DNA from: Eledone cirrhosa | Taxonomy: Eukaryota | DNA length: 64,000 nucleotides | Direction: 5' to 3' | NCBI GenBank assembly: GCA_964016885.1 | Contig: OZ024740.1 | Span: 368,156,001-368,220,000 of the forward strand | Shown here: positions 9,004 to 64,000 of the stretch, in pieces | Layout of the letters: each line of letters starts with the position of its first letter | Numbering within the stretch: the stretch's first letter is position 1 | Notes under the pieces: generated by a model | Databases searched by the model: none | The model's input: the letters and a program-made list of their open reading frames with translations, nothing else | What the model was told of the DNA's origin: nothing | Program-made: the position numbers and the translations under genes

Positions 9004-9604
9004 ATAGAGGTGTAACACACAAAGTTATTATATATTGGTAAACGGAATAGAAAATGCTGACAAATTGTTCACAGTTGAAAAATGGTTTAATTAGGAATAA
9101 AAGAGTATTAGTGATTGTATGGGTTAGTATTCAGTTGTGGTTTAAAGTTTTTAAGCTTTTACCGGTTGCGCATTTCTAAATGCTTTTCAAAAATAATTTT
9201 GAGATAGAGTGTCCGTGCTGTTTGCTCTGATCTGATTAGTTTTGGGAATTCTACCTGTTTTTATGTTAAAAAAGTGGCTCCAGCGTTATTTTTGTGTTGC
9301 AAAAATGCTTGTGGTCAAAACAATTTTGATTGGTCGGTAGAGGTCATGTGAATGTAAAAAGTTGATTTTGCGCCAAGACTGTTTTTATGTAGAATTCCCA
9401 AAACTAATCAGATCAGAGCAAACAGCACGGACACTCTATCTCAAAATTATTTTTGTAAAGCATTTAGAAATGCGCAACCGGTAAAAACTTAAAAACTTAA
9501 AACCACAACTGAATACTAACCCATACAATCACTAATACTCTTTTATTCCTAATTAAACCATTTTTCAACTGTGAACAATTTGTCAGCATTTTCTATTCCG
9601 TTTA

Positions 9605-9612
<8 letters not shown>
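8998..9612. mobile_element. Fold-back element family D in (TA)n (arms 9031-9254 and 9389-9612, unpaired ~30-nt tail 8998-9030)
   Basis: Near-perfect 224-nt inverted repeat with TA runs on both sides. Contains the TTGAAAA...GCAACCGGTA hammerhead-like core. Confidence 0.8.
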
Positions 9613-9656
<44 letters not shown>

Positions 9657-10160: not shown

Positions 10161-10336
10161 AACGAAGGAAATGTGGTAAGGAACCAGGTGGACCATAACG
10201 CACCAAAATACTCAATACTTAGGGTAGTAGAGTGGGTAATAGGAACAAGTAAGACCTCGACGGCTGAGCTCAAGGTGTTTCGACTAATATTAGCCGTCGA
10301 AACGGCTTGAGCTCAGCCGTCGGGGTCTTACTTGTT

Positions 10337-10340
<4 letters not shown>
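10161..10340. mobile_element. Fold-back element family A, copy 1
   Basis: aacgaaggaaatgtggtaagg... tail plus hairpin taggaac...gttccta, bounded by (TA)n. Six copies in the window. Confidence 0.85.
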
Positions 10341-10395
<55 letters not shown>

Positions 10396-11237: not shown

Positions 11238-12116
11238 ATGGGAATTACTCGTTTAGAGTAGTAAGACCATAGTCGGCTAAGTCTTCAATATATCTTAGAG
11301 GACTAAAAATCAAATAGCCCGAATAAAAAAGGAATTTTGCGTTGATGTGTAGAATTATGTTTCTGCAGTCAAGTAAAGAGGCAAACGCTAGCCAAAGAAG
11401 TGAGGAATATAGGTCAATTAGTGGCTATAATTTGACAGCAAAGGAAACATCAGCATGTGGAAGGGAGTCACACGGACGTCACACACACACACATAAACAC
11501 ACACACACACGCACACGCACACGCACAATCTTACCCATGGTCTAATATATACATATACAACTGGTTATAGGAAAGTGATTAGATAGATATTAATGAATAG
11601 AGTATCTATAAATGAATGTATATTGATATAACAGTACAAAATAACAAAAATGATACTAACAAGAATGCCGATAATAAAGCTCTCAGTGATATGAATGTAG
11701 TGATAACCGCAAACGTAGTGGAAAATGATAGAAATATCACTGGTAAAATCATTACATAATATCAGAAGCAGTACGTAAATTTGGAGTAACACTAATTTTG
11801 TGGGAGGGGGAGTCGGCTATGACAGCGGGACATAAAGCTCAGTTGGATGCTGTGGTTACACCAAGGGAAGAAAATTAGTGGAAGGGCATGTTTGGAGGTA
11901 GATGAAATTCACTCGGGCGTCACACATACACATATACCCTACGTACAGGAACATACTTAACTACACTCAGACAAATGCATTTTAAGGATGCGCTGATATT
12001 TGGTAATAATGGAGATAGGGGGAAATCAGAGATAACAATATTAAAGGAAATATGAATAATCGTTGAGAATAATGAAGGATAACCACAAAACGTAGTTATG
12101 GTGAAAACGGTAATAA

Positions 12117-12320
12117 ATGTTTCTACTTTAGACACAAGGTCAGCAATTTGAAAGTAGATTAAATCGACCCTAATGAATTACTGGTGCTTGATTTATCGAC
12201 CTCGTAAGGATGAAAGGCAGAGCTAACCTTTGCGAGATTTGAACTAAGTACGTAAATGTACGTAACTATATCCTGCGAATAATGGTGTCCGACGCTCTAG
12301 CGATACTGCAATCCGCCACC
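12117..12320 (-). mobile_element. SINE S1 with target-site duplication
   Basis: S1 body flanked by ggtgaaaacggtaataa (12100) and ggtgaaattggtaataa (12324). Confidence 0.85.
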
Positions 12321-13646
12321 CATGGTGAAATTGGTAATAATACAAATGTTAAAGAACCGTACTAGATAATACAAAGAGCTGTAAGTAAATGTAAACAAAA
12401 GCACGAAATCTGGTAGAGCCCAGTTCGGTTAAATGGTGCACAAAACTTGACCAGCTCTAAATCTGTGACTCTCCTGCAGATCGGGAGGCGTGGTTGTCTG
12501 AGGCTGGACAGAAATCCGGAAGTCAGGGATCACTACATAAACATAGCTATTTAAGTGAGTGTACATGTGCGTGTATCTATGTGAATATGAATTCCACGAT
12601 ATGTTGAGGGAAGGTTGTGAAAAACCTGTGCTCATTTACAGTATGATCAATGCACAATTATATCGAATATCTATTCTCATACCAAATTTCTCTAACAATA
12701 TATTAAAGGATTCGAATGACCTGTTGTAAGGTTTAAACTGGGCCATGTCATGCGTTTCTCATGCGTAATCAAATCAGTGACAGGAATATCTCTTTAAATG
12801 TAACACCTCTTTCATTATCGTTGAATCATCAGTATATTTCTAGTCAATAAAAGGAAAACCTGAAAATCGTGAACTTTGAAATCCCAGGGAGTAAATCGAC
12901 AGAAAGCTTCTCGAGAAAGTGTCCGAATTTGATTTAAGTCTTATTCCATACCGTTTTAGTTGAAACATGTAAAAATATCAATAATATTATATTTGAAGAA
13001 GTATGCTAAATCATATTTTCGGTGACAAATTTTACATTCCTATAACACAACACTTTCATATTATGAGAGAAATAACCAATGCTTATAAATCTATAAATAA
13101 ATTACTAAATGTGAGCCTTATGTATAGATGTAGAAAGTAGCAGGCGTGAAACGAATTACGTTGTCTCCATCGATACAATAGTCATATCTGAAAGCTTAGT
13201 GAATCGATTATATAAGTCATTTTTCCACAACGTTTATGAAATTGCAGAAATATGTCTCCTGCGAATACTTTCATATAATTTACTATACATCTGCAATAAT
13301 TTTATTATAAGCAAGTTGTAATAATGTATATTCAAATGACATTTAATGTCAACACAAACCCACTGTTAACACCAACATATATAAACATACATGTATCACA
13401 TACAAAAACATAAACAACATACAACTATTCAAAGGCGTTCACTTAGGTAATAAATTAAGCATCAGATAAGATAATGAAATGTTATATATATATATGTGTG
13501 TGTGTCGGACGATACCAAGCACGCTAGCCGGTTTAAGTTTTTACTGTGTTCGCCTGTTAACCACGTACTTTCAGGGCAGCTTAGACTCATACGATGACTT
13601 TAGTGTTAGCGAAATGCGATAGTTGGAAACTTTGTGAATCCACAAC

Positions 13647-13688
<42 letters not shown>

Positions 13689-13690
<2 letters not shown>

Positions 13691-13902
13691 CGAAGGAAAT
13701 GTGGTAAGGAACCAGGTGGACCATAACGCACCAAAGTACTCAATACTTGAGGTAGTAGAGTGGGTAATAGGAACCAGTAAGACCCCGACAGCTGAGCTCA
13801 AGCCGTTTCGACGGCTAATTCTGTAGAAACATTTATTACCGTTTTCACCAGAATTAGCCGTCGAAACGGCTTGAGCTCAGCTGTCGGGGTCTTACTGGTT
13901 CC

Positions 13903-13904
<2 letters not shown>
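13689..13904. mobile_element. Fold-back element family A, copy 2
   Basis: Same tail and arms as 10161-10340, with a 28-nt foreign loop. Confidence 0.85.
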
Positions 13905-13932
<28 letters not shown>

Positions 13933-13936
<4 letters not shown>

Positions 13937-14208: not shown

Positions 14209-14243
14209 ATATATATATCAGAACTCCGACGGCTATATATATA

Positions 14244-14432
14244 TAGGAAAAGCGTCAGGAGCCCTATAATTGAGCTGCGGCCGTTTCGACAGCTAGGTCT
14301 GAACGCTGTCGAAACGACCGGAGCTCAGCCGTCGGAGTTCTAAATCTTTTCCTATTACCCTCTCTACTACCGAAAGTATCAAGTACACTGGTGCGTTATA
14401 GTGCACCTGGTTCCTTACCACACTTCCTTCTT
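14244..14432. mobile_element. Fold-back element family A, diverged copy 3
   Basis: cgtttcgacagc...gctgtcgaaacg hairpin plus tail ...ggttccttaccacacttccttc, opposite orientation to copy 2. Confidence 0.75.
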
Positions 14433-14936
14433 TATATATATATGTATTTATCTATCTATCTAGCTGTATATATACATCCATATATGCAGTACGTACACAC
14501 TCACACACACACACATACGTACACTCACGCACGTTGACCCGCTAACATGCACACACATAAAACTAAGAATGTACAAAAACATAGATGTAATGACATATAT
14601 ATAAAAACACATACAAACACACATATATATATATATACATGCACGCGCGCGTACATACGGAGGCGTTCGTGTACATATACAGAAAGTATACACACGTAAA
14701 GACGCTCAGACACATAGATACAGGTTGTAAAAACACCCTTGTGAATGAGTGAGTGCAAATATAAAAAATATAAAACTGGCTGCTAAATAACAGAAAATAT
14801 CTGGAGTGGAAAACGCAAGTAACTTGTGTAATCAAGTAGTACAGAAAATAGGGAAGTAAAAGGTGGAGAGTGAAGATATTAGGTAAGTGAATCGGAGAGT
14901 AAAGTGGGGGCGATGGTTTAGTGGTGGATGTGAAGT

Positions 14937-15339: not shown

Positions 15340-15890
15340 GAGCTGGAAAGCAGGTGTGATTTCATGTGTGGGCAACTGGTGAACATTTCTGTCTTTGTGT
15401 TTACGCAGGTCTTTGGTGATTTAAGTTTTGCAAAATCCAATATTTTTCATTTATGCATAGCGTGCACTTTCTTGTTCCTTTGCATTTTCTTTAGATTGGT
15501 TCAAAATTGACCAATCCAATTTATATTGGATACCTTGGTCTTTCAAATCCCATATTCTGCTAGCCAGAGCTGTTTTAAATCTTTTTTTCTGGATGTCGAA
15601 AGGATGCGACATGTGAGTAATAACGCGTTTTGAATTTGTCTTGTCATACCCACATATCGTTCACTGGTGGCTGGTTGGTTGTTGCTGATGGTTGTCACTT
15701 TAGCCGCATATACAATGGCTTTGGTGTTGCATTTACCTTGTAATGGGCATTCACTTTTGATTCTACAGGAGCAATTTTGATGTTCTCTAGGTGATTTGTT
15801 GTTGATTATATAAGATTTAATAGGGGGACCGCAGGAGTAGCTAATTTCGACACAGTTTCTGTTAAAGATCTTATAGTATCTATGTGTTCT
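15340..15890 (-). mobile_element. Penelope-like element, GIY-YIG endonuclease fragment
   Basis: KIFNRNCVEISYSC...CSCRIKSECPLQGKC...AIVYAAKV...RYVGMT, then frameshifted FKTR..H. Cys-rich linker plus VY/YVG (GIY-YIG) motifs. Confidence 0.85.
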
Positions 15891-15900
15891 ATATATATAT

Positions 15901-16305
15901 ATTAGAATTGGTGCTCTGAAATAGCGATATATATATATGAATGTATATATAGTGTATTTACAATACACTGTATGCTTAATTAAAAGCATTTCGAAGACCT
16001 TACGCTATTGTTATAGAGTAGTGACAGTCTCACTTACTTTAAATTTTCATCAAACAGGGGAGATAAATCAGACAGAGCTCTGTTTCGTTCTGATTGGTAC
16101 TTATCAATAAAGGTGGAGTACTTGGTTTTGATAAGTACCAATCAATATGAATCAGAGCTCTGTTAGCTTTATCTCACCTGCTTGCTGAAATTTTAAATTA
16201 AGTGAGACTGTCACTACTCGAACACAATAGCGTAAGGTCTTCGAAATGCTTTTAATTAAGCATACAGTGTATTGCAAAATACACTATATATACATTCATA
16301 TATAT
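15901..16305. mobile_element. Fold-back element family B in (TA)n
   Basis: Tail 15901-15927 plus arms ~15931-16106 and 16128-16305. Further copies at 38321 and 38642. Confidence 0.8.
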
Positions 16306-19466: not shown

Positions 19467-22400
19467 GCGTGATAATGCCACAAAAAAATCACGCGGAGTG
19501 ACAAAACCACCGGAGGCGAGGAATTCACCGGTGGTTATGTAACCATACATTCGCCAATCCTCGATAAGAGTGTTTAAATGTCGAACCTAAACAGTTCGAA
19601 TAACGGTGAAATGGAGACTAGAATGTCATGTGACAGACTCTCACCCAACAGGTGCTCCCTGGCTCAGCAGCAGGGACCTGGCTGTCAACCAAATACTGCT
19701 GGTGTCGGAGGAAGAAGAAGAAGGAAAGGGACCAGAACCAACTGGACGAAAGAATTGAATAGAACTGTTATGCAATGTTACCTGAAGAGTGACCCCCCAA
19801 GAAGAAAGGCTATAGGAAACGGATGCATAACATCTGGAACGAGATTGGTCTATTTAAATTAGATGAACAAAAATTGGCCGGGCAGGCTCGGGTATATAAG
19901 AACTAATGGGTGGATAAGCGAGCTGGAACTGGAGGAACTGAGCAGAGAGGTTAGCTTGGAGATGGAGGGTGGAGTATGCCAGGCAAACGAGCCAGTGGGA
20001 AATGAAGGTGAAGAGGTCGAGAGAACGGAGGAACCACCCGAAGCAGACAATGACCTGAATGATGAGATAAATAATACCTGGAACAGAGATACGGCCACTG
20101 AGGAGATGAATGCTGACGGGCTAGGACAAGATTTGATTGATATCCTAAACTTAGTGGTAGATGAATTGAACAATGATAGTGGGAGACCTATGAACCTAAG
20201 ATGTGTAGACAGGAAAAAGTTAAAAGAAACAACAGCTAAGGTAAACAAAGTCATCCCATACCTTGAGGCGAGGAACCTTCACCAGTGCAACAATATCCTC
20301 AAAGCAAAAGCAAACACTGTGAGGAAACTACTTGGTATAAAAGCGAGAGGAAACAACAGACAAGAAAGAGCAGAGCCTTGGTGGAAGAAACGACTGAGTG
20401 GTCAAATCAGGGAAATGAGAAATGACATTGGAAAGCTTGAGTCCCTACTAAAAGGGACACTAAAAAACATAAACACTAAAAATAGACTGGAAATAAAGTA
20501 CAAAACTAGGAGGAAAAAGCTAAATATTATCATAGAGGAACTGAAGCAACGCATTGTAGCAAATAGTGCAAAAATCAGGCGATACGAGAACAGAGTCAGT
20601 CAGTATAGACAGAACCGCATGTTCGACAACAACCAGAAGATGCTGTTTGGACAGCTTGAAGGGAAAGAAAGAGGCAACGACTTGATCTTTGATGCGGAAC
20701 AAACTAAAACATTATGTTAAACATAATGACCATGCAGTGTGGATTGAAACAGTACAGAAGGAGATTAGTGAACAGGCACACCAACAAACTGATTTGAGTA
20801 TCACAGTTGAAACTCTTAAGGGGCAGACCAAGAAACTAACCAACTGGAAATCACCACCAGGCCGATATGGTGTGCAAGGGTATTGGATTAAAAATATAAC
20901 ATCCCTCCACCCGAAACTGACAACCATGTTCAATGACTGCTTGATGTCAGGTGAGGTACCAGAGTGGTTGACAAAAGGTACCACAGTTCTGATAATGAAA
21001 GACCGAATCAAGGGTAATGATGTTACCAACTATAGACCTATCACATGTCTGTCCGTAATGTGGAAACTGTTGACAAGCATTATGTCTGAGGAAATCTACC
21101 ATCACCTCCACACAAACAACTTGTTACCGGACGAACATAAATGATGCTGAAAGAAGTCACGTGGTACAAAGGACCAGTTACTTATTGATAAGATGGTAAT
21201 GAAGAATTGCAAGAGGAGACACACTGGTCTTGCCATGGGATGGATAGACTACAAAAAGGCATTTGACATGGTGCCTCGTTCTTGGATCACCAAAAGCCTG
21301 GAGATCTTCAAGGTGGCAGATAACAGCAGACAGTTTTTGGGCAAAAGTATGAAGTCCTGGAAAACAGAGTTAACATCAGCTGGAGAATCCTTGGGAAGCG
21401 TGAAGATCAAGTGATTTATGTTCCAGGGAGATAGTCTGTCCCCTTTGTTGTTTGTCCTTGCCCTGATGCCCCTGGCCATTATACTGTTGAAAGTGAGAGC
21501 AGGATACAGGTTGGGAAAGGGAGGGCTTACCATCAATCACCTCCTCTTCATGGACGATTTTAAGCTCTTCGGGAAGAGTGAGAAGGAGTTGGATGTGCTT
21601 GTTGACACTGTCCGTATTTTCAGCAATGATATATGTATGCAATTTGGTATTAGTAAGTGTGGAGTCATTGTGATGAAGAGGGGTAAGTTGAGCAGAAGTA
21701 ACGGAATCCAGGTACCAACAGGTGAGATGATAAAGGAAATTGACTCTGAAGAAGGATACAAGTATTTGGGCGTTCTGGAGGCTGATGACATCAAGAACAA
21801 AAAAATGAAGGAATTTATAAGAACTGAATACCTTTGGAGAGTAAGGAGCGTATTAAAGTCACATCTGAACAGTAGGAATGCCATAAGTGCAGTAAATTCC
21901 CGAGCTGTGTATATTATTAGGTACAGTGTGGGAATTCTGAGATGGAATGTTGCTGAACAAAAAGAAATGGATAGGAAGACTAGGAAGCTATTGACTATCT
22001 ACAACATGTTCCACAAGAGGAGTGATGTCGATAGACTCTACTTAAGGAGATCTGAAGGTGGAAGAGGTCTTATCAGCACAGAGGACTGTGTTCAGATGGA
22101 TTAAAACAACCTACACAAATACGTGACTGATAGTAAGGAGCCAAAGCTCAGAACTGTAATGAAGGAGGGGACAATAGGCCAGGGGATGTCCAAGGAGGAA
22201 ATAACATCAAGGAGAAAGAGCAGCCTTCAGGAAAAATCCCTTCATAGTACCTTCTTTGAGAAAACTGAATTTAGAGATCCACAGACATGGAACTGGTTGA
22301 AAAGAGGAGACCTTAAAAAGGCTACAGAAGGAACGTTAATGGCTGCGCAGGAACAGGCCCTCAAAACGAAGTGGTTGAAACACCATATTTACAAGGAGGA

Positions 22401-22967
22401 GGCTAACCCACTGTGCAGAATCTGTGGAGAGAGAGAGGAGACTGTGGCTCACATTGTATCCGAGTGTAAACACCTAGCCCAGACTCACTATAAGGGCTGG
22501 AGACATGATGTGATGGGCAGGGTGATCCACTGGCACCTATGCAAAGTAAACAATTTACCACATTCTGAGAAGTGGTATGAGCATAAGCCAGAGACGGTGA
22601 TAGAAAACGATCAGGTGAAGGTGCTGTGGGATTTTAGGATACAGACGGACAAGAAACCTGAACACAATAGACCTGACCTGGTGGTTTTAACAAAGAAAAA
22701 AGATCGTGCCTGATTGTGCGCACTAGGGACTATCTCAAAAAGTTTCCAGTTCCAGTCAAAAAGTTTCTAGTTAAAGAAAATTGGCCCCTTCACACTTTTT
22801 GGAACGCTTCAAAAGGCATGCTTGCTGGGGACAGCAAGAACCCTCCGATACGTCATGAATATCTGAGGCTGCAGCTAGTGGCTTGATATTCATTTCAACA
22901 AACATTCCAGTTAACTAACATCAATCACTGGGACTCAAAGAGTAATAACAATAATAATAATAATAAT
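19467..22967 (+). mobile_element. Near full-length, disrupted R4/Dong-clade non-LTR retrotransposon (RT + CCHC + restriction-like endonuclease)
   Basis: Successive ORF pieces with [79 protein letters not shown]. (AAT)n tail. Several stops and frameshifts, and an internal deletion near 22715. 5' boundary approximate. Confidence 0.93.
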
Positions 22968-24315
22968 GTTTTCTTTATTAACCACAAGGGTTTACATAAA
23001 GTAGACATTAAGGACAGTACAGGACAATACAGGACGGTACAAGTGGGCATTTCTGCGTGTAAAAATTATAGAGGATGTACTAAAACAACAAAGAAAAATT
23101 CCCTAATACGGGGGAGACTTCCGAGGGACATTTGTGGAGAAAGCCCATTAAAAGACCACAGTGACCCTGACAACCAGGGCAAGTGCCCTCTCCCAGTTTT
23201 CCACCTTTACTTTACAGACACATATTTAGAGTAGGCCCATTCACTCGGGCTGTACTTGCTTCTCTCACCCATCTTTCAACAAAATGCTGGGAAGAGAGTA
23301 CTTCCCTCTCTACCCTGATTTTCCTTTTCAAATGAAATTTGAAAAAGTTAATCAGGGATTCACCGAAGAGGTAAGTGCTCGTCTTCAGCCCTTTCAAACG
23401 TGTCCAACATACTATCTCTTTCGCCATGGCCACCAGACAGATAAAAACTGCCTGCCCTTCCCGGCTAAAGGAAGAGGGCGGGGTAATCCTCACGATGGAC
23501 TCAGATGATAGCCGGTGTTCGACATAAACAGCAGGTGTTCGACATAAACAGCAGGTGTTCGACATAAACCCACAAGTCAGCAATCCTCGGACACTGGACG
23601 AGTGCGTGCAGGACGGATTCGTCGCCCTGCGCGCATCTCGGACATTCCCGGCTGACGGCACCTCCATGCCTGTAGAGTTTATCCGGAACTGGCAAAGCTC
23701 CCCGGTATCACTGCCAGGCCAGGGATTTCTGGAAGTTGTCCATAGGCCCCGGCCCGAAAGTCCTTCCGAAGATATTGGCTAGGTGATTTTCGTCTACGCC
23801 TAGAGTTTCTCCAAGTACGTCATCGCTCTTCCCCTCCACTAATCCTCTATAGAACGCCAAGGTGGAGTTTCCACCGATCACATTGCCCGATTGGTCGAGG
23901 GCTGTGACCGCCTGAAAACATTCCAGTCTCCAAGCGCTCCCTCTCGGTCTTCGCTTGACCCAGGACTGAAGCTCCGTCAAGGAGACGAGCTGGGGAAAGA
24001 CGTGTCTAGCAAACGGCGACCACACCTGATCACCGTCGAGGAAGAGGTGTAGATGTCGTAGCCTGAGGGCGTGTCTGCGCATCATCAGCCACGGCATGCC
24101 CATCCCTCCACGTAGCGGGTGTTGACAGCAGATGGACCTCCTGACCATCGGAGCGCGTCCCTTCCACAAAAAGCGAAAGAGCAAACGCTCCAGCGCAGTC
24201 AGGCGGGGATTAGGACAAGGTACGAAGGTCAGGCGGTAGTGTAGATGATGGACGCGATGTACGCGTTAACCACCTCCGCTCGACCTTTCAGGGATAGCTT
24301 TCTCTCGGCCCATTT

Positions 24316-25065
24316 CTAGGTGCGAGAAGCCACCCTGCTCGTCACCTCGCCCCAGTTTTTGTCCGTCTGGAGGTCCGGACCGAACCAGACCCCTAGCAAT
24401 TTAACCGGTCCGTCCGTCCAGCGCCCGACGAGGCTATTGGACGGCATGGACCTGCCTCTCCAGGTGCCGAGCTGCAGGCCCACTGATTTTTCCTGGTTGA
24501 TTATTGCTCTTGTCACCGCTTCGTATTCCCTTAGTGTAGTGCCGATCGCCTCGATGCGTTTGGCGTTCGACACCACTACTGTGACATCGTCCGCATATGC
24601 TGACCCGGATCTTCCGCATCCTAGTTCGCGCGGGACCACCCTCAACGTCTCCAGTTTGTGCAGTAATGGCTCGAGAGTCAATCTGTACAAGAGGGACGAG
24701 AGGGGACATCCTTGGCGGACCGAGCGCATGATGTTGAACGGTTCCGAAAGGTGACCGTTCACTCTCACCACAGAGCAGATGTCGCTGTGCATGGCAGCGA
24801 TCCAGTCTCTGAAGACGGGCCCAAAGCCAGCCGCCCTCAGAACTGCCGCTAGATAACGATGGTCGACCCTATCGAAAGCTTTCGACTGATCTAAATTGAT
24901 CAAGGACCCACCCGTGCTAGGTTCCCTAGCTACCCTCTCTACGATGTATCGCATGAGGTGAAGGTTGTCGTGGATGGATCTGTCGGGAATGGCGCATGTC
25001 TGTGCCTCTCCCACCAGACCACCAACGACAAGCGTCAACCTCTTTGCTAGCACCTTGGCCAACAT
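24316..25065 (-). pseudogene. Tx1 ORF2 reverse transcriptase domain
   Basis: 249-aa ORF with AFDRV, QGCPLS, YADD. Confidence 0.9.
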
Positions 25066-25998
25066 CTTGAACTCTGTGTTTATCAGATTTATGGGCCTGA
25101 AATTATCTATGTTATCCCCCTATTTCGGATCCTTTCTCAGCAGCGCCACCGCTCCTCGGCTCAAAGTGCCGGGAATTCTCAGGTTCTGTTGCCAGTTGCA
25201 GTAGACGGCCGCCAAGAGGCCTCCGAACAAGTCTGGCATTTGTACGTAAAGTTCATAGGGCAGACCATACAAACCAGGCGATTTACCCCTTGTGCAGCCA
25301 GTCATTGCCTCCCGGACTTCAGCGGCTGTTATCGGCTTTTCGCAAAACTCCGCCTCAGTGGCTGAGAGCTGCGGCAACCCGTCGAGGTAGACACTAAAGT
25401 ACATCACTCGATCCGGCCCGCCGCTGCCACCGAACAGTTGAGCGAAGTGTCGCTGAAAAGCTTCACACATTTGCCCGGAATCGAGTAGCATGCGCCCGTC
25501 GTGGTCCCCCAAAGACCGGATCGTGGCTTTGTTGCCACGACGCGCCTCCGCCACTCAGGCCCATTGAACGGCTTTCGTCCCTTCGTGTCTGAGAGCACGC
25601 ACCCTAGCTCTGACAATGCAGCCTTCGTGCTTTGCATTGAAGAATTGGTCAAGGGCCAATTTCGCCGCAAGTACGTCGGTCGCGATGCCTTTGCAAACCG
25701 CCTCGTCTAATTTTCTAACTAATTCTCTCTCTGCTCTATTTTTCTCTATTGCTAAAGCCTTACTAAACCTAATGGACTCTATTCTAATTGCTCTTTTCAG
25801 AGCTAACCACCACTTGTTGTTGACGATGTCCCCCGTCAATGCCCGCTCAACTAGTTCGCTAATCCGGTCTCTGTAGGCCTTGCACGCTGGTAAGGACGAG
25901 TTTAGCTTCCAGTAGCCGGGTCCTCGTCTATGAAGCCTATATAAGTTAAGCACACAGATCACAAATTGGTGGTCCGTGTAGCTGAATATCTTGAATTG

Positions 25999-26682
25999 TT
26001 AACAACCTATGCTAGACCTATCTATTTTCCTACAAAATACTCTATCTAGATATGATCTGGATGACCCTATACGATTTGTCCAAGTCCACATTGGTACATT
26101 CGGGAAATTCAATCGGTACCTGTCAGACAGTTCAAAACGCCTGAGCAGGTTGGTGAGACTCTTGCACCCTCCTCCCCTATCCACTAATCCCACACAGTCC
26201 CAGCGTGCATCTAAGATCCCGTTCCAGTCGCCCACTAACACTAAAGAGCGGGACGTTCCAAGAAAGGTCTCCAGACGCCGGAAGAAATCAGGCCGCCCTG
26301 CTCCTGTCGGGGCATAGACGGCCACTAACCTGAAAGCTTGGGCGTCTCCGCTGGTCACGTCCAGCACCACCAACTTACCTTCTGGGTCCAGGAAGATGGC
26401 CCGTATGGCAAGATCCAAACCTCTCCGAAAAAGCACAGCAACTCCACCTCCCGATCCCGGACGGCTGGGAGATGCGTACACATCGTAGCCCTCGAAGATC
26501 GGTGCGAAGGCCCGTGCTTCGGAGATTCTAGTTTCGCTGATGGCCACTACATCTATATTTAATGACCTGAGGTCGTTGAGCAGGTGGCCCTGCTTCCATG
26601 GCGACACCAAGCCACGCGCATTTAAGCTGCCTATCCTGAGGAGGTCATGTTGAAATGGAGTGGAAAAGTTGGGAAAGACCAC
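25999..26682 (-). pseudogene. Tx1 ORF2 apurinic-like endonuclease domain
   Basis: 227-aa ORF with APE motifs, interrupted by a stop before the final SDH-like motif (YTDH). Confidence 0.9.
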
Positions 26683-28843
26683 TTACCTTACTTCTCGTAG
26701 AGGAAGGACGGTTTTTCCATCCTTTTCATTGCTTGTGGCCTCCTCAAGAAGGATGTCCTTATAAATCCTCCTGGAGAGTGCTTGTCGGATGTCTTTGGGG
26801 AATTTTTGTTTTAGTGTCATGTACGTTTTCTGTGTGATGCGAGTGATTTGTATGTGTGGAGGTGGTGTGAATTTTTGGGTTGTTGTGTAGTCTTTTTCTG
26901 TGATGCTGGTGTTGTGTTTGATGTAGTGTAATAATTGCTTGTTGTTCAAATTTAATGCTGTATAGTGTGTATCGTTTTGGTTGTTTTGTTTTGTTCGCGT
27001 TTGTTGTGGGCTTGTTTCTGTTTCGCATTTTGGTGACTTTTGTGGTGTAGGTGATGGTGGTGTTGGGGTTAATGATGGTGATGGTGCTGGTGTTTGGGGT
27101 GATGGGGTTGGTGATGCTGGTGTGGATGGTGGCATATCTGTCCTAACTTTTTTGTTTGTTAATTTATTTGTTTCTTTCTGTATTTTGTTTTTGGAGGGGG
27201 AAGGAAGAGATTTTTTCTTTTTTGGTTTCTTTTTTTCTTTTTTCCTGATACCGTTTCCCACTCCTCGTCGTCACAATCTGTCTCCAGCTGTGATAGGCCG
27301 GGGAGTGGAAAATCCTCCACAGGCGTTAGTTTTGGTTGTGGCGTGGTGGATGGTGGTAGGCGCTGGTGTTAGTTCTGAAGCGTTGGGTGGTGGTGGTGTT
27401 GGTTTTGCTACTGTTGCTGGGGTTGTTGCTGTTATAGTTGCTTCTGTTGTTGCTGCTACAGTTGTTGCTGCCATCTCTGCTACTGGTTGTGTTGATGTTT
27501 GTGTCACTGGGGTGGGTAGGAGAGGTGGCCTCATCCTTTTAGCCTGAGGGCAGAAATACTTTAGGTGTGTTCCTGCACCACAAACGACACACCTAGGCCT
27601 TCTGCCCTCGACAATTCCGGTGAGGTGGCTGCCGTCAGTGAGGTCTATACCTCTGGGATCTCCTCAATGCTTTTTTGGTCGGCTTGGATCAGGAGCTCCA
27701 TCCCAGATCCGGACCAGTTCTCCTGCTTTTCTTTTGCTATTGCTATTATCTTTGTGTTGGCTTCGATGCCGGCGAAGACAGCCGCTATTAGCCAGGGAAT
27801 TTCGATGGCCAGTGGAACGTGGGTCACCCTGATCTTTACGAGTCTCTGGCCACAATAGCTTGGCACGAGTGTGAAGTCGGTACTTCTTAATGGGGCCACG
27901 GAGTGTTCTCTAGCCTCCTCTGGTGTTTCAAAGAACACGTCCACGGTTCCATAATTCTGCCCACGTCTGATGCGGGTTTTTCTTTCCCACACATGTCCGA
28001 AAGCTTTTTGCATTTGGGACTCGGATGCCCGTTCCACTCGGCGCGATTTTACATTAATTGTTCGGTACGACACGGTGCATAGGCGCCGATGCTCCATTTT
28101 ATTAGGTGTGTGTGTGGGGGGGGGGGGGTAAGGCTGACCCTGTACCCATCTTTCTTTACCATTTTGTTGGCATTTTCTAATTCCTCCTGAGTTACCGTAA
28201 ATGCTTCGCACTGTTTTGCTACTCTGGCAAACCTCAGGGTGGTTTTTTTAATGTCATTGTTGCTGTTGTTGTTATCGTTATTTTAGTTATTATTAATTTT
28301 AGTTTCAGTTGTGGTGGTGGTGACGTCAGTGGTGTTGGGTGTTGAAGAGTCCATTTTGGTTGAAAACATTTGGACATCACGAGTTGATTTATTTTTTCCT
28401 TTTGTTTCTGTTGTCGCAGTGGTGGTGGGGGTGGTGGTGGTGGTGGCGGCTTTAACACCTGCAGTCATTGGTAATGGCGGGAAATGAATGTCTACCTGAG
28501 ACAAATTTAAAATATTGCTACTGCTTACATGTTTTGTGTTGGCAAACGTAATAATATTTACAATGGTGGTGTCGGTGTGAGGTGTTAGTTTGTGAGGAAG
28601 GCTATCAGCTGCTTGGTGCATAGGTGAATTAGCCATTTTTTTTCAAAGAAATTTTTGAAATTCATAAAAGTTTAAATTTTGGGCACAAGGCCCCAATCTT
28701 TTTGGGTGTCCTTATCGGAAAACAATGTATGCGCGCTTATAAACAGTTAACAATAAAATTTTCCATAAATGGCAATTTTTAACAAACGAAAACAACAAAC
28801 CTTTGCGGAGCTCACGATGATACGATTTACTACGTAGGTCGCC

Positions 28844-34784: not shown

Positions 34785-37250
34785 TATCACAGAAACGAGC
34801 AAGGATTTGCTGCCAGATTAATTATCTTAAACACTGTCTGAAGAACGATTTAATCCCCAACATCATCAGAAATATCCGGCTCCGCCGAGCCCTCAGTTCA
34901 TCGGGATTCATTAAACGTGTGCATCACACCTGCTTAAAAAATTCACACGTAATTTATACCACCAGCTCCACCTACACACACAACCAATTTCACAACAGAT
35001 GATTTTACTAAGAATAACACTCGATAGTCTGCTCTATACTACTACAGCGCTATCGACCAGTGCTACCATGCCCGGGTCCATTTTGAGAAAGAACGTCTCA
35101 AACATAAATTCGACTGGACCCTTAAAGAACAGACTAAAGCCAATAATAGCGTTACACGTGATAACAGCACTCCTCTCTAGCAGACAACCTCTAACACTAT
35201 TGGAGTCGGGCTTCAACATGTTCAACGCCAGAAACACGACAACAGCAACCCCACCGACTCTATGAACAGCTCCACTCTTGACCCGCAGAATGATGACAAC
35301 CTAAAACTCGTCACAGATCTAACTGGGTCTCTTTCCAACGATGAAATGCAATTCTTCCGTCGGGAACCCAAGTTTATCTTGACGTAGTAACTCGATGACA
35401 GACTCAAATTCGCCATCGAGGACAATTTCTACAGAGCCGCCTACAAGCTAAAGTGGCTGCCTTTCACTGAGACTACCACAATGAACTCAAGATTCCCCAC
35501 TTTCAATCGCGACAACTTACTACACCCTCCATCCGCCAACCGTGATCTAGAGACTAAACTCTAACGGTTAAAACTTACCATTACTAACATCATACAAAAC
35601 ACACACATACTCACCACAAACTCTCCAGATCACAACTCGCTACCCTAAGCAGCCTTAGAACAAAGAAACTTGTATACCTCCCGTCGGACAAGGGAGAAGA
35701 GATTTATGTTATTACCAGAGAAGCCTACAACAGACTAGCCTTCCAGCATCTGAAGGACGACAATATCTAATTGGAAATCACTAGCATTACACCCACTCTG
35801 ATATAGAACTGGATCGACACTGCCTGGACAAAATTCTGCGACCGACGAAGGCTCCCTAACTGATTCCGGTACCATTACATAACGAGGAACAGTAGGCTGC
35901 GCAACTTATACCACTTGATCAAAACCCACAAAGAAGGACCTGACCTGGAAGATGGACCCATTGTCCCCAGTGTTGAAGGACCATCTTATAAAATCTCTTG
36001 GCTACCGACCAGTTCGCATGATGTCATCCATCGACTCAACCAACTTGAAATTGACACTCTCAAATCCAACAGATACGCCTAGATCTAGTATTCGCTACAC
36101 ATCGGCAACAGCACTTTCGGCAGTGGACATACTCACTGAATGTGGAGGTTTCAGCGAGCTGGATTATTTTGGGCTCACCACCATCGACATCCAACAGCTC
36201 CTATCCATCATTGTAAACAACTCATTTTCCAACTTCCTTGGACAAACATGGATTACCCATGGGATCCAGCCACTCGGGTTTACTGGCCATTACGTATGAG
36301 AAGAGATGTGAATGCCGAGATCTTTCTGCACTAGATATGTGGATAATATACTCACCCTCACACCCACCAAGGAGAATGCCACAAGATTTTCGAATATTTC
36401 AACATGCTGAATATAACATGAAGTTCAACATCTAACATCCCACCGACTCCCGGTCCCACACTGTACTTGATTTCAGACTGAACATCTCTGATAGTGGTGA
36501 CATCTACACCGGTTTCTACTGCAAAGCAGCCAGCAAGGACCTGTTTGTGCATTAGAAAACTGCCCTCCCCAACAGATCTAAAAGACGGTACATTTTCAAC
36601 GAAATGGCTCGCATACGCAACCGATGCAGCAACGCTGCTAATGGAGCCACCCATATCAGACGATTCCACAAGGTAGTAGAGATTAACGGCTACCTAACTT
36701 CCTTCACCACCCCACGATAAACCCAGACCCAGCGACCGGACCAACACAAACAACAGTTGCTTCTTCAAGATCTCACATCACAGTGAGGTAACCATCAACG
36801 CCATACGCAAAGCCATCAGGAGAGGGCCTCAATATCCAACTAGCTCACTCTGGACCTTCCCTGCGAAGATGCCTCTCCACAAGGCACCCCCCCTCCAACG
36901 AGGATAACGGATACACCCTAGGCAATTGCCATATCTGCAACACTAATAGTTGCCTATGTACCTACGTAGTATACAGGATAGCATGTAACAAATGTTATCT
37001 ACTTTACATAGGCAGCACTATTCGACTGTTACATCTCCGTATTAAAGAGCATGTTAACACCAACTTCTCTTACTTCCGCAAACACACCATCAAATGCAGA
37101 AACCTGGAAAACATTACCACCACAATGTTAACTACTATAGGCACGCTGAGAGTTAAGGAAGCCCTCTTAATCAAGCAATTAAAACCTAGGATCAAATATC
37201 GAATGGAAAGAAGTGTACCAGAATGGCTGTATTCTAACATCCCAGTGGTC
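34784..37250 (+). mobile_element. Decayed Penelope-like retroelement (RT + GIY-YIG)
   Basis: Fragments in shifting frames: INYLKHCLKNDLIP, YLPSDKG, LYHLIKTHK, HGLPMGS, RYVD, then CHICNTNSC and VVYRIACNKC..YIGSTIRLLHLRIKEH. Begins right after (TA)n(GA)n. Confidence 0.85.
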
Positions 37251-37784
37251 AGTTTCATTCTTTCTGTCAAATTAAATCTATGTCCTCACTCGACAAACAC
37301 ACTTAGACTCACACAAACACACACACACATATCACACATTTTTTCCCTTTTTATTATATACATATTCGCACACTCCCTTCACTAGATAAATGTATATTCA
37401 TGCACACACATACAAACATCCCACTAAGCACACTTACATTCATGCACACACATTCATATATCAGAAACTTTTCCACAAACATTTCACAACGCTCACGTTC
37501 GAAATTATAACGTCTTTTCATTTCATTTAACTTGAGTATGTTTTCCAAACAAGTCATTACCGATCGATCTTTTAAGTCTATCCAAGAGATACTCCTTTGA
37601 TAATTGGTATTTAAATCCGAAAATATTTGGTATTATTAAATTTGTTAATGTGAGATTATTTTGTTGTTTTAGCAATTTAATTTTCTTTCTAGTGCATTGT
37701 ATGGTTTCCAAACTATTAACATTTGCGTTTACGGTTCAAAAATGCTTCAAGCAAATTACAGCACTCTGATACACACATACATAT

Positions 37785-38791: not shown

Positions 38792-39730
38792 AATATGTAA
38801 GTAAACGGTAAACAGAAATATCAACACAATCGGTACAGTATATGTAAGGTATATATTAGGTTAACGCTTGATATAGCAGGAAGAGGGTCTTAATTTTTTC
38901 GGACGTTAGTCCTTCATAAGAAGAAATAATGAGAAATAAAATAGATTAAGGGGACGGGCGGGATGGAATTGGAAAAAATGTATTTAGATAAAAATAATAG
39001 GTCCATTCATGTTAATCATGGGGCAATTAGCTTGAAAGGCAATATGTTTTTCGTGAGTCTTTATTGTATCCATGATGTTTCACATAAAACCATTCAATAA
39101 AATATTCAAATATCTAAAGCTCCACTTTGCATTATATGTATGTGTTTGTTTAAGATACATATTTTCGAAAATCACCACAAATTAACCTTTAGTTTGTCGT
39201 CTCATTTTTTCATTCATTTTCTTCCCACTTTCAAGAGTTTATGCATTAAACGAATTATAACTGCAATCCCAATCTTAGCCACTTAAGACATTCATCAGGA
39301 CATAATTAAATGTAAAAGTTTCACCCGTGGAATTTTCTCATCAAATAATCATCGGTAATAGCGACATTAAATTACATATTACTTAGCTTATATAAACATG
39401 TGTACAGGATTGAATTTATTAGAATTCGTTTTTCCATAAAATTCCGCATACACTCGAATCTCAAAAGTTTCAAAACTACGTATGCACAACTGCCAATATT
39501 ATTGGATATTATGTTCTTAAATGATATTCAACCTCGATTTGTTATATGTGGGTGTTGGAAGGAGAGTTGGTGAGTATTTCTGTATTATTCACAATAAATG
39601 TTTCATTTGAGCGAGGCAAATAAGCGTTAATGACAAAATTTTCGAAAGTTCGTTAATATAATAAAAGGTATTAAACCTCTTATTGCATACTTTCCTGTCA
39701 TTTTCTCAATGTTACATATATATATATATA

Positions 39731-41031
39731 TAGGAACAAGTATGACCCCGACGGCAGAGCTCAAGCCGTTTCGACGGCTATTTCTGGACTAAATAAGAAT
39801 TTTTAGCCAGGTAAATAAATAGCCGAACTTCTCAGGGGTATTTCATTATATGGGAAGATATAATTGTCAAGAGGATTGGTCAAAAATGTGTTGTAAAGAC
39901 AGATAAATCTATCATGACATTTGGTGGGAGGTAGGGGTGGCTGAACTTGTCAGTAGAACAAAGAGGGAGTGGAGGAAACCCAGTCAAGCGTTGAAAGTGA
40001 AATCTATACAGCAGATTCTAAGGATTATTTAATAGGTCTAAAAAAGTGTACTGGCGAAAAAAGGCGAGGGGGAGTTGAAAGAATAGGTAAATCAGTACCC
40101 CCCCCCCCTAATTTTAAGATAGAATTGGCCGATTACGCTTTTTATAGCAGATTTGTTAGACCCCAGTAATTTTTTTTCTTTCTGGTTGCTGCTCCATTTC
40201 TATGGTTTCTAAATTTCTTAGTGGTATTTTTGAATTAATATTTTTGTATTAGTATTTTTGTATTAATATTTTGTTTTAGTATTTTTGTAGTAGTATTTTA
40301 GTATTTTCGTTTTCAACTTATTAACCTGTCATTGTAAGATAGAATTGGCCTATTACTAACTATCTATAGCAGCGGTGTTAGACCCCCTGTAAAGCCGGCT
40401 TTATAAATTTCTTTCACTACGATCTCGTATTTAGTATTTTTCCCATTCTCCACCTATTAAACTTTTCTATAGCTTAGCAATACCAATGAGAAATTTGGTG
40501 ATTGTAGAAATGGAGTAGTAACCAGAAATTGTTATTATATATTTATTTCCTTATTTTTATGTTTTTTTTTTGTTTTCTACTCCCTATCGATTTACCTATT
40601 CTTTCAACTCCCCCTCCCCCTCCTCTTTTCCAGTACACTTTTTCCTTTTATACACTATCCTTAGAATCTGCTGTATAGATTTCACTTTCACCGCTTCACT
40701 GGGTTTCCCCGACTCCCTCTTTGTTCTACCGGCAAGTACAGTCACCCCTACCTCCCACCAAATGCCTTGATAGATTTATCTGTTTTTACAACACATCTTT
40801 GACCATTCCTCTTGACAATTACTATCTTCCCATATAAGGAAATACCGCCTGAGAAGTTCGGCTACGTATTTACAAGGCTAAAAATTATTATTTAGTCCTG
40901 AAATAGCCGTCGAAACGGCTTGAGCTCTGCCGTCGCAGTTATACTTGTTCCTATTACCCACTCAACTACTCTAAGTATTGAGTACTTTGGTGCGTTATGG
41001 TCCATCTGGTTCCTTACCACAACTCCTTCGC
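39731..41031. mobile_element. Fold-back element family A, longest copy
   Basis: Diverged arms ~39731-40097 and ~40580-40953, tail 40954-41031, (TA)n on both sides. Confidence 0.85.
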
Positions 41032-41479: not shown

Positions 41480-41487
<8 letters not shown>

Positions 41488-42251
41488 ATATTTGGGGAGG
41501 GTCATATTTGCGTAATATTGCCAGAATTAATAACAGAACACACTCACTGTTTGGTTGGTTTTCGCTTCTCGCTGTCTTTTATATATATATATCTGCGATC
41601 TAACTTACTCGGTCCTCAATGTTGCCATTGACTGACCGGCGGTCAAAAATAATACAGATACAATATAGACACAAACACATATATATAGTTTACATAATTT
41701 ACATAAATCTTTCGTTGCACATCTGCAACATCGTCAGTGGTGTTATATTCATTGTCACGACACTATACACACTAGTCACACATCACACTATACACACACG
41801 CAAACGCATGCGCAAAGAAGACAAAATAAAATAAGATAAACAAACAAGCAAATAAATAAATAAATATATAGACAGACTGAACAAAAAAAAAATGGCGTAG
41901 ACATACAACACAACAGGAGGAACAATGAATATAACACCACTGACGATGTTGCAGATGTGCAACGAAAGATTTATGTAAATTATGTAAACTATATATATGT
42001 GTTTGTGTCTATATTGTATCTGTATTATTTTTGACCGCCGGTCAGTCAATGGCAACATTGAGGACCGAGTAAGTTAGATCGCAGATATATATATATAAAA
42101 GACAGCGAGAAGCGAAAGCCAACCAAACAGTGAGTGTGTTCTGTTATTAATTCTGGCAATATTACGCAAATATGACCCTCCCCAAATATAACAATATCTG
42201 TTTCGACACACGATTTCATATAAAAAACCTCGCAAAACTAATTCATCGCCG

Positions 42252-53837: not shown

Positions 53838-53959
53838 CAACAAAGTAAGTGTGGTAAGGAATCAGGTGGACCTTAACGCACCAGAGTACTCGACACTTAA
53901 GGAGGCAGTAGTGTGGGTAATAGGAAAAAGGAGAAGAGTCAGGGCTCTGCTGACTCTTT

Positions 53960-53963
<4 letters not shown>
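53838..53963. mobile_element. Family A partial copy 5
   Basis: gtgtggtaaggaatcaggtggaccttaacgcacc... between (TA)n runs. Confidence 0.75.
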
Positions 53964-53997
<34 letters not shown>

Positions 53998-54361
53998 CAG
54001 TTTACATATATATATACATATATATACATATACGTGTTTTGCAACGGGTCACTTTGTGGCTCAATAAAAAATTAATAATCAGAGCTATATATCATAAAAC
54101 ATGTCTATAGAATCACAAGATAAAATATATACCATTTCCTCTCCCAATTAGCACAATTAACTATATAAACAATCGAATAGACCAGGCTAAAAGAATGAGG
54201 CTTCTATGAAGAAATTTTCAACAAATAACCGAAACTAGTCCTTCGCGTCGGCCGCAACGGAATATTTATCGAATATTTCGACAGCGTAATCGCACAGATA
54301 CAGTCAACTAAACAGAATTAGGTGTAAAATAAACTAGGAGAAAATAGAATACATTTAAATA

Positions 54362-54447
54362 CCTCTACCATCGTTTCATCCGCATTTTGAGTTTTCCAAT
54401 AATTATGTAATAATTATATAAACTCGAGCCCCGGATTTATCAGGAGA
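54362..54447 (-). ncRNA. Hammerhead motif, family E minus copy (CTGATAA core, probably impaired)
   Basis: Reverse complement of the 54958-55041 motif with G8 changed to A. Confidence 0.5.
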
Positions 54448-54957
54448 TTTGCTCTTATCTAGACACTAAATTTTCCAAAGTGATCGCGCCAAGAATACAT
54501 TCAAAATGGCTAAGAATCGTGACGTAGCCGCGGTCAGGTTGGAAGGGGTGTGGTAGTTGCTTATGACTGGTGGCATTTTTGCTAGAAAGCACATCACAAT
54601 AAAGCCATATTTGTATCTCAACCTAATGGGAGATTATTACATATAAAAGTTTACATATATATATACATATATATACATATACGTGTTTTGCAACGGGTCA
54701 CTTTGTGGCACAATGAAACATTAATAAATTAAATAATCAGAGATATATATCATAAAACATGTTTATAGAATCTCCCATTAGGTTCAGATACAAATGTGGC
54801 TGTATTGTGCTGTGCTTTCTAGCAAAAATGCCACCAGTCGTAAGCAACTACCACACCCCTTCCAACCTGACAGCGGCTACGTCACGATTCTTAGCCATTT
54901 TGAATGTATTCTTGGCGCGATCACTTTGGAAAAGTTAGTGTCTAGATAAGAGCAAAT

Positions 54958-55041
54958 CTCCTGATGAATCCGGTGCTCGAGTTTATATAATTATTACATA
55001 AATATTGAAAAACTCAAAATGCGGATGAAACCATGGTAGAG
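54958..55041 (+). ncRNA. Type I hammerhead ribozyme motif, family E copy 1
   Basis: ctc-CTGATGA-atccg..gagttt..aaactc..cggat-GAA-accatggt-A-gag: intact core, perfect palindromic stem III, GUA triplet. Confidence 0.8.
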
Positions 55042-55615
55042 GTATTTAAATGTATTCTGTTTTCTCCTAGTTTATTTTACACCTAATTCTGTTTAGTTGA
55101 CTGTATCTGGGAGATTACGCTGTCGAAATATTCGATAAATATTCCGTTGCGGCCGACGCGAAGGGCTAGTTTCGGTTATTTGTTGAAGATTTCTTCATAG
55201 AAGCCTCATTCTTATAGCCTGGTCTATTCGATTTTTTATATAGTTAATTATGGTAATTGGGAGAGGAAATGGTATATATTTTATCTTGTGATTCTCTAGA
55301 CATATTTTATGATATATAGCTCTGATTATTTAATTTATTAATTTTTCATTGAGCCACAAAATGACCCGTTGAAAAACACGTATATGTATGTATATGTATA
55401 TATATATGTAAACTTTTATATGTAATAATCTCCCATTAGGTTGAGATACAAATTTGGCTGTATTGTGCTGTGCTTTCTAGCAAAAATGCCACCAGTCGTA
55501 AGCAACTACCACACCCCTTCCAACCTGACCGCGGCTACGTCACGATTCTTAGCCATTTTGAATGTATTCTTGGCGCGATCACTTTGGGAAATTTAGTGTC
55601 TAGATAAGAGCAAAT

Positions 55616-55699
55616 CTCCTGATGAATCCTGTGCTCGAGTTTATATAATGATTACATAATTATTGGAAAACTCAAAATGCGGATGAAACGATGGTAGAG
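55616..55699 (+). ncRNA. Type I hammerhead motif, family E copy 2
   Basis: 658 nt downstream of copy 1. Core intact; stem III acgatggt. Confidence 0.7.
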
Positions 55700-55967
55700 G
55701 TATTTAAATGTATTCTATTTTCTCCTAGTTTATTTTACACCTAATTCTGTTTAGTTGACTGTATCTGGGCGATTACGCTGTCGAAATATTCGATAAATAT
55801 TCCGTTGCGGCCGACGCGAATGGCTAGTTTCGGTTATTTGTTGAAGATTTCTTCATAGAAGCCTCATTCTTATAGCCTGGTCTATTCGATTTTTTATATA
55901 GTTAATTATGGTAATTGGGAGAGGAAATGGTATATATTTTATCTTGTAATTCTATAGACATGTTTTA

Positions 55968-56742
<775 letters not shown>

Positions 56743-60522: not shown

Positions 60523-60730
60523 AACGAAGGAAATGTGGTAAGGAACGAGATGGACAATAACGCACCAAAGTACTCAATACTTAGGGTAGTAGAGTGGTTA
60601 ATAGGAACGAGTAGGACCCCAACGGCTGAGCTCAAGCCGTTTCGACGGCTAATTCTGGAGTAAAATGATTTTAATCCAGAATTAGCCGTCGAAACGGCTT
60701 GAGCTCAGCCGTCGGGGTCCTACTCGTTCC

Positions 60731-60732
<2 letters not shown>
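60523..60732. mobile_element. Fold-back element family A, copy 6
   Basis: Tail plus hairpin with a 15-nt loop, in (TA)n. Confidence 0.85.
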
Positions 60733-60762
<30 letters not shown>

Positions 60763-63513: not shown

Positions 63514-63643
63514 TCATTGTTTCCGAAGAAGACGGTCTGATCGAACCTATATATGAGGTTTGATATTATAGAGTTATATAACTGCTATAGATCAGACAAT
63601 ATATCTATATAATCGAACCTTCGAAATGATCGTAAAACAATGA
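63514..63643 (+). ncRNA. Hammerhead motif with branched stem II (C4 variant)
   Basis: tcattgttt-CCGAAGA-[93 nt]-GAA-atgatcgt-A-aaacaatga: perfect 9-bp stem I. Partial inverted copy at ~63730-63782. Confidence 0.65.
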
Positions 63644-64000
63644 TATGAATAGGTAAAATAACTTGACTTTGTCGCTTCTATATTCCTTTGATACAGAGTC
63701 AGGTATTAGGTATTAAATTAACAACGAAAATAAAAGCGACAAAGTCAAGTTATTTTACCTATTCATATCATTGTTTTACGATTCAGCGAAACTCAGAACA
63801 TCTCTATGGATTTCACTGGATTACTCGCCATCAGATTACATTGAGTTCTATCTACGGTACGGACGCTACCACCGGAGGTAGACTGCACTGAAATATATAT
63901 ATATATATAGTAAAGAGAAAGAGAGTGAGAGAGAGTAGAGAGGTGAAAGAGAAAGATATATATATATATATACTTATATAACAACTAGAAATTGATTAAC

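Follow-up and report, generated by a model that had tools for sequence, protein, structure and literature searches.

Between two TA arrays of the Eledone cirrhosa contig OZ024740.1 lies a hairpin whose loop matches, on the opposite strand, DNA 1.7 kb away. How did a piece of nearby sequence come to lie at the center of an inverted repeat, and how general is such a capture? We analyzed the whole 64,000-nucleotide stretch around this locus (the window, whose coordinates are used below) and copies of the same repeat, family A, elsewhere in the genome. Six family A copies lie in the window; these, the parts of the focal copy and the source of its loop are as follows.

13649-13688, no strand: left (TA)n target array
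13689-13764, minus: tail of the putative Penelope-like element (3' extension, on one half only), adjoining (TA)n; long relatives run into an RT and GIY-YIG ORF on this strand
13765-13823, minus: long, tail-bearing arm, the 3' part of the pLTR; it holds the 3' half of a hammerhead-shaped motif (3' strand of helix II, GAAA, helix III and the GUC site)
13823-13850, plus: captured 28-nt patch, 24-25 nt of it beyond the arms; inverted exact copy of 12099-12126
13849-13907, plus: short, tail-less inverted arm, ending at the fixed internal end of the family before (TA)n
13906-13933, no strand: right (TA)n target array
12099-12126, plus: source of the patch, comprising the left target-site duplicate and the 3' tail of an older SINE
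12113-12321 (approximate), minus: the older tRNA-type SINE, with a 19-nt target-site duplication and ~70-79% identity to other window copies
10161-10341, minus: family A copy with no foreign sequence in its seam
14243-14433, plus: family A copy of a diverged subfamily, in opposite orientation
39730-41030, plus: long family A copy with a complete hammerhead-shaped motif; its tail-bearing half is ~0.9 kb and its inverted tail-less half ~0.4 kb
53839-53960, minus: short diverged relative of family A
60523-60733, minus: family A copy whose seam consists of A/T tracts from the arms

The match between the focal loop and 12099-12126 is exact along the reverse complement and stops at both ends, as the sequence-only reading had described. 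A whole-genome exact search (2,996 Mb) returned the 28-mer twice, as the loop and as its source; the possibility that it is a common repeat or part of the family consensus, which that reading had named as an objection to its own account, was rejected on this count. The source had been taken for a SINE tail together with its locus-specific target site, and this was correct: the target-site duplicates of the SINE (12098-12116 and 12322-12340) share 17 of their 19 positions, and at the two that differ the loop has the letters of the left-hand duplicate. The short microhomology noticed at the loop ends amounts to 1 nt at the long-arm (left) junction and 3 nt at the short-arm (right) junction. The two arms are complementary at 59 of 59 positions, which argues that the focal insertion is young and the SINE older. 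The hairpin had also been placed in an intron, and this was not borne out: an ORF scan of the window gave only transposon-derived frames and identified no host gene, a scan that short exons could escape. Reads placed on the element form family-wide pile-ups, and the focal seam is known from the assembly alone; the RAD reads that end at 13820 and 13852 were probably cut there by a restriction enzyme. We regard the focal 28-mer as a scar with no sign of function.

The hairpin itself proved real, and the family, which the earlier reading had left unnamed, can be assigned. Judged from its sequence, family A represents the 3' terminus, consisting of the pLTR and the tail, of a putative Hydra-clade Penelope-like retroelement, inserted head-to-head in (TA)n. 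In the hairpin, the final ~135 nt of the element are joined to a second, inverted copy that covers the inner 60 nt and lacks the tail; inverted, 5'-truncated copies that bear the tail at a single end are the insertion form of EN+ Penelope-like elements. Frames upstream of family A in L050, L055, L060 and L066 carry RT motifs followed by a C-terminal GIY-YIG-type core. The L066 translation has DKT in place of DKG, and the frames of L050, L055 and L060 have a CxCX5C linker and, near the end, CxxC and CxH, with CCHH absent. At the RWK position L066 reads RWM, adjoining an inversion seam, and none of the copies used retains an intact N terminus. The clade assignment rests on these motifs, read by eye against the definition in the available part of PMC8557442; a Pfam search of the L050/L055/L060/L066-type RT-endonuclease frames gave no significant match. 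The Hydra clade as described there shares with family A the DKT, the CxCX5C, the lack of CCHH, the CxxC and CxH, the C-terminal GIY-YIG, the (TA)n targets, and the 5'-truncated inverted copy with a one-ended tail. In contrast, the tail is ~75 nt here and 30-40 nt in the Hydra clade (Craig et al. 2021, PMC8557442, as far as available), and the hammerhead core here has A at position 8. The available portion of that paper describes neither a seam nor local capture for the clade. The Neptune clade was dropped against the clade definitions in the same portion, and a DNA transposon or excision footprint was rejected because the ends are asymmetric and long copies lead into an RT-endonuclease ORF. 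Remains of further Penelope-like elements, bearing GIY-YIG-type frames, also lie in the window (15546-16004, minus; 34915-37382, plus), as do two long broken LINE copies with RT and endonuclease frames (19578-22710, plus; 23215-28247, minus) and further long inverted repeats adjoining TA arrays (9029-9614, 41480-42197, 54074-55976, 56008-56737 and 63629-63782).

The pLTR has the layout of a type I hammerhead in 22 copies, with helices I to III, GAAA, GUC and a 35- to 45-nt loop II. The canonical CUGANGA core was found in none of the 22; the core is U3-A8, a variant described in PMC4209133, in 6, C3 with A8 in 14 and of other form in 2. An Rfam search of the window returned no match. Hammerhead-shaped motifs with A8 lie at L083, L085, L118, L126, L128, L022 and L048-L067, and in the window at 40845-40940. 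Short copies begin inside loop II, and the template from which they were copied would accordingly be missing the ribozyme's 5' half.

Family A hairpins have outer ends fixed in (TA)n, clustered inner ends and unique seams. Exact-arm patterns run over the whole genome counted roughly 7,900 hairpins, a lower bound composed of overlapping loop classes. Loops of 0-21 nt account for 6,607, about 84% of those counted; 874 have loops of 22-50 nt (found with longer anchors), 279 of 40-66 nt, 68 of 67-96 nt and 49 of 97-126 nt. That other family A copies have different loops had been noticed before, and it is seen across the window copies. By eye, most seams in the genome are short or patched from the arms; the long ones among the matches listed are nearly all different and consist mostly of reiterated arm pieces. 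The junctions show microhomology and patches reiterated from the break ends. At the outer end of the short arm the same 13 nt recur in 94 of 123 hairpins. Inner ends cluster as well: 14 of 28 bystander copies, not chosen for this property, stop within one 16-nt stretch; the position is in hammerhead loop II, at the word TYAGT, which we take to resemble an initiator. Many cDNA ends read GGACT followed by C, and the C may be a base added opposite the RNA cap; it is ambiguous because the other arm can also supply it.

In long copies either half can be the longer, both arrangements being present; among 145 hairpins the tail-bearing arm was longer in 7 and the tail-less arm in 6, one locus being counted twice. 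The halves were therefore likely made independently and then joined. The two arms of one hairpin belong to the same subfamily haplotype in 108 of 123 cases, where 35 would be expected at random. This concordance leaves two separate RNA molecules unproven, one RNA copied twice fitting equally well. L010, in which two diagnostic sites assign the arms to different subfamilies, hints at two RNAs per insertion; as the sole clean two-site discordance among the 123 it is not conclusive, and the idea was set aside. Asymmetry of A tracts could be scored at 6 informative loci (4 versus 2), too few to use.

We then compared the loops of other hairpins with their own neighborhoods, a check that the sequence-only reading had proposed. 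The picked set contained 60 loci with flanks of ±5 kb, chosen by eye mostly for foreign-looking loops, and with the focal copy came to 61. The picking drew on the first 50 of the 874 hairpins, 50 of the 279, 50 of the 68 and 49 of the 49, on about 76 further loci and on 30 more. For a locus to count, its longest exact match to its own flanks had to beat all 60 other loci as controls. This was the case within ±5 kb for 31 of 61 loci (about 1 expected); L151 beat the controls as well (32 with it) and was excluded as a duplication of the whole hairpin, and weaker local matches at L098, L107 and L146 bring the total to 34. The unpicked set comprised 82 distinct loci fetched by search, with flanks of ±1.5 kb, taken first in genome order or as best-scoring and weighted to long loops; 9 of these beat all controls versus 0.43 expected, or 8 without one element-derived match. 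Templated capture of neighboring sequence where the two arms meet, as suggested from the focal loop, is thus real and recurrent at family A seams and not a one-off repair scar; its family-wide count is new here. We estimate that recognizable local captures number roughly 80-100, or about 1% of copies, a rough figure scaled from 6/50, 10/50 and 9/49 hairpins and a few per cent of 22- to 39-nt loops.

Captured lengths range from 14 to 110 nt. L144 carries a 110-nt exact copy of DNA at 1.16 kb, L149 a 107-nt local match at 0.5 kb and L138, from 1.5 kb away, a 114-nt local match with a single mismatch. The 32 sources measured lie at a median of 710 nt, 18 of them below 1 kb, 9 at 1-2 kb and 5 beyond; foreign patches come mostly from 0.24-4.7 kb away. 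A search at 5-15 kb for the sources of 10 unmatched loops found none (0/10), and one of these, L146, was later matched at 1.2 kb. Captures are direct in 18 of 32 cases and inverted in 14, and all classes of side and orientation occur (11, 7, 7 and 7). Nine of the 32 sources lie within 50 nt of a TA array, against 9.1 expected, and the idea that sources are extra endonuclease cuts at other TA arrays was rejected on this equality. Capture and source differ at 29 of 1,456 nt (2.0%) and arm and arm at 34 of 1,032 (3.3%), similar divergences, which fits capture and insertion being roughly contemporaneous.

Some loops have sources elsewhere. Those of L133 and L140 are 54- to 100-nt fragments of the RT ORF of the element itself and lack a counterpart within 5 kb. 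The 32-nt loop of L159 (G000:C9:37886322) has a single exact match, on another chromosome at L194 (G000:C12:43513667), a site that looks like an old LINE relic. L115 and L116 (G000:C5, 48.54 Mb and 68.22 Mb) both carry one unit of a tandem array, with equal orientation and end points; the array (L200, G000:C7 from 29.231 Mb) has a core with 147 exact matches genome-wide, and an Rfam search of it returned no match. The insert of L134 was found only as its own inverted pair.

The best explanation, to which we give a probability of about 60%, is that the loop marks where the two halves of a head-to-head insertion were joined, its 28 bases having been templated by DNA at a distance of 1.7 kb, with polymerase-theta-type end joining as the likely mechanism. 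The element's endonuclease would cut both strands of the TA array, and RT would start from both cuts at two fixed RNA sites, giving a tail-bearing and a tail-less cDNA. Both cDNAs would usually stop at one place inside hammerhead loop II, possibly the 5' end of the RNA. Having the same sequence, the two cDNA ends could not pair and would be joined via 1- to 6-nt microhomologies, A/T tracts or short patches copied from the arms. At roughly 1% of insertions, one end would prime on DNA within about 5 kb (rarely elsewhere), copy 14-110 nt, let go and anneal to the other cDNA end. The seams favor two independently made cDNAs over self-priming.

The sequence-only reading had proposed either an RT jump or polymerase-theta-type repair. 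Its templated capture stands, and the two routes are not separated, the evidence leaning toward DNA repair over a jump of RT onto RNA. Orientation does not discriminate between them, since the strands expected from resected DNA are also those expected from the nascent RNA of a polymerase that has stalled at the break. By eye, direct microhomology of at least 2 nt occurs 9 times at the junction predicted for priming on resected DNA and 11 times at the other, and the focal 3-nt microhomology lies on the side not predicted; the idea that resection predicts the priming side was dropped for want of a pattern. Against polymerase-theta-type joining stands the reach of hundreds to thousands of bases, compared with templates mostly within 10-15 bp in the worm and L1 data available. 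Templates within tens of bases of the break are found for the arm-derived patches; the foreign subset lies at 0.24-4.7 kb.

A tentative alternative is that the element's RT makes the patch, adding a few untemplated bases on reaching the end of its RNA and then jumping to nearby nascent RNA or DNA, after which the ends are joined. The A tracts of unequal length that flank many seams would fit such jumps, as would the ORF pieces at L133 and L140, which suit a jump on the element's own RNA and to that extent speak against polymerase theta. One seam derived from a single site and two from a tandem-array unit, on other chromosomes, point the same way, and a single L1 case of co-inserted local pre-mRNA appears in the available part of PMC10191854. 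However, the reiterated short patches and internal duplications in the seams of L111, L147 and L157 fit iterative repair synthesis, and the ORF scan revealed no host gene near the focal copy. None of the captures was seen to span a splice junction in the unannotated sequence. Moreover, sources fall off within 5 kb, a shorter range than one would expect if nascent RNA from long introns served as template. We consider it rather unlikely that the telomerase-like RT of Penelope-like elements itself closes their two-ended insertions by template jumping, with nascent host RNA or host DNA up to about 5 kb away among the templates. If it does, the thousands of seams would be a direct record of RT-driven end joining and of what lay near a germ line break. 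A bacterial RT with end-joining activity has reportedly been found.

It is improbable that a perfect palindrome formed first, by self-primed fold-back, and that a cruciform later broke at its center and left the loop as a scar. Palindromes do undergo revision by breakage at the center. The concordance of the arms and the slightly lower divergence of capture from source than of arm from arm would suit this history, and inverted-junction palindromes of Penelope have been read as products of self-priming (PMC3846280, as far as available). A fold-back copy, however, cannot exceed its template, yet either arm can be longer. Breaks at the center should delete arm sequence, yet with most captures each arm still extends in full to the shared inner end. 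The gap in divergence may be explained by the CpG-rich arms and by the trimming of mismatches in local alignment.

The suggestion that the loop is a spacer taken up locally and complementary to its own intron, which would be processed to a guide RNA against neighboring sequence, is hardly credible: constant arms, a variable loop and an exact local match would suit it, but 6,607 hairpins have loops of at most 21 nt, captures are unconstrained in length (14-110 nt), side and strand, patches read on the long-arm strand are half sense and half antisense to their source, the captured pieces checked each stay at one insertion without spreading to other copies, and no host gene was identified.

The seams, likely products of polymerase-theta-type joining, can be set beside known systems, each compared through the available portions of the papers cited. 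The Poseidon element PAc in vitro resembles family A in that both strands are cut and extended and two RT start sites define the tail (PMC11167929); it belongs to a different clade (Frangieh et al. 2024). Second-strand synthesis and repair are left open in that paper, and family A seams record that step. Polymerase theta end joining likewise shows microhomology of at least 1 nt, reiterated break-end patches and snap-back patches (PMC5068794), and a few per cent of its inserts come from distant sites (van Schendel et al. 2016). About 85% of its inserts prime within 10 bp, whereas most of the identifiable foreign patches here have sources at 0.24-4.7 kb, and the joined ends are those of cDNAs. 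Somatic L1 insertions also build in nearby host sequence of <250 bp (10.1101/2024.08.27.596794, PMC10191854); their templates typically lie within 15 bp, and they arise by one-ended or twin priming, not from two equal cDNA ends (10.1101/2024.08.27.596794). Penelope elements of Adineta vaga form head-to-head inverted copies and hold captured host DNA between pLTRs, but those spacers measure 0.9-1.5 kb, lie between direct pLTRs and have no donor mapped (PMC3846280). Self-priming was proposed for them, and family A arm lengths argue against that here. A search of mostly open-access literature, main texts only, found no kilobase-range capture at Penelope-like seams, and the same literature yielded no paper joining "Penelope-like" with "polymerase theta." The available portions of PMC13282606, PMC9977147 and 10.64898/2026.07.22.740005 contain no such capture at Penelope-like seams.

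How Penelope-like elements finish insertion is stated to be open in the available parts of PMC8557442 and PMC11167929. The focal seam is best read as working like a templated insertion at a repaired break, on what would be a Hydra-clade Penelope-like insertion. With thousands of natural family A seams at one fixed position, this final stage of the cycle becomes testable. DNA as far as about 5 kb away is sampled during joining, far beyond the worm repair scars or the L1 reports in the sources available, and the seams give a natural measure of the reach of broken ends in an invertebrate germ line. Their value lies in a large natural record of an unresolved insertion step and not in a spacer system.
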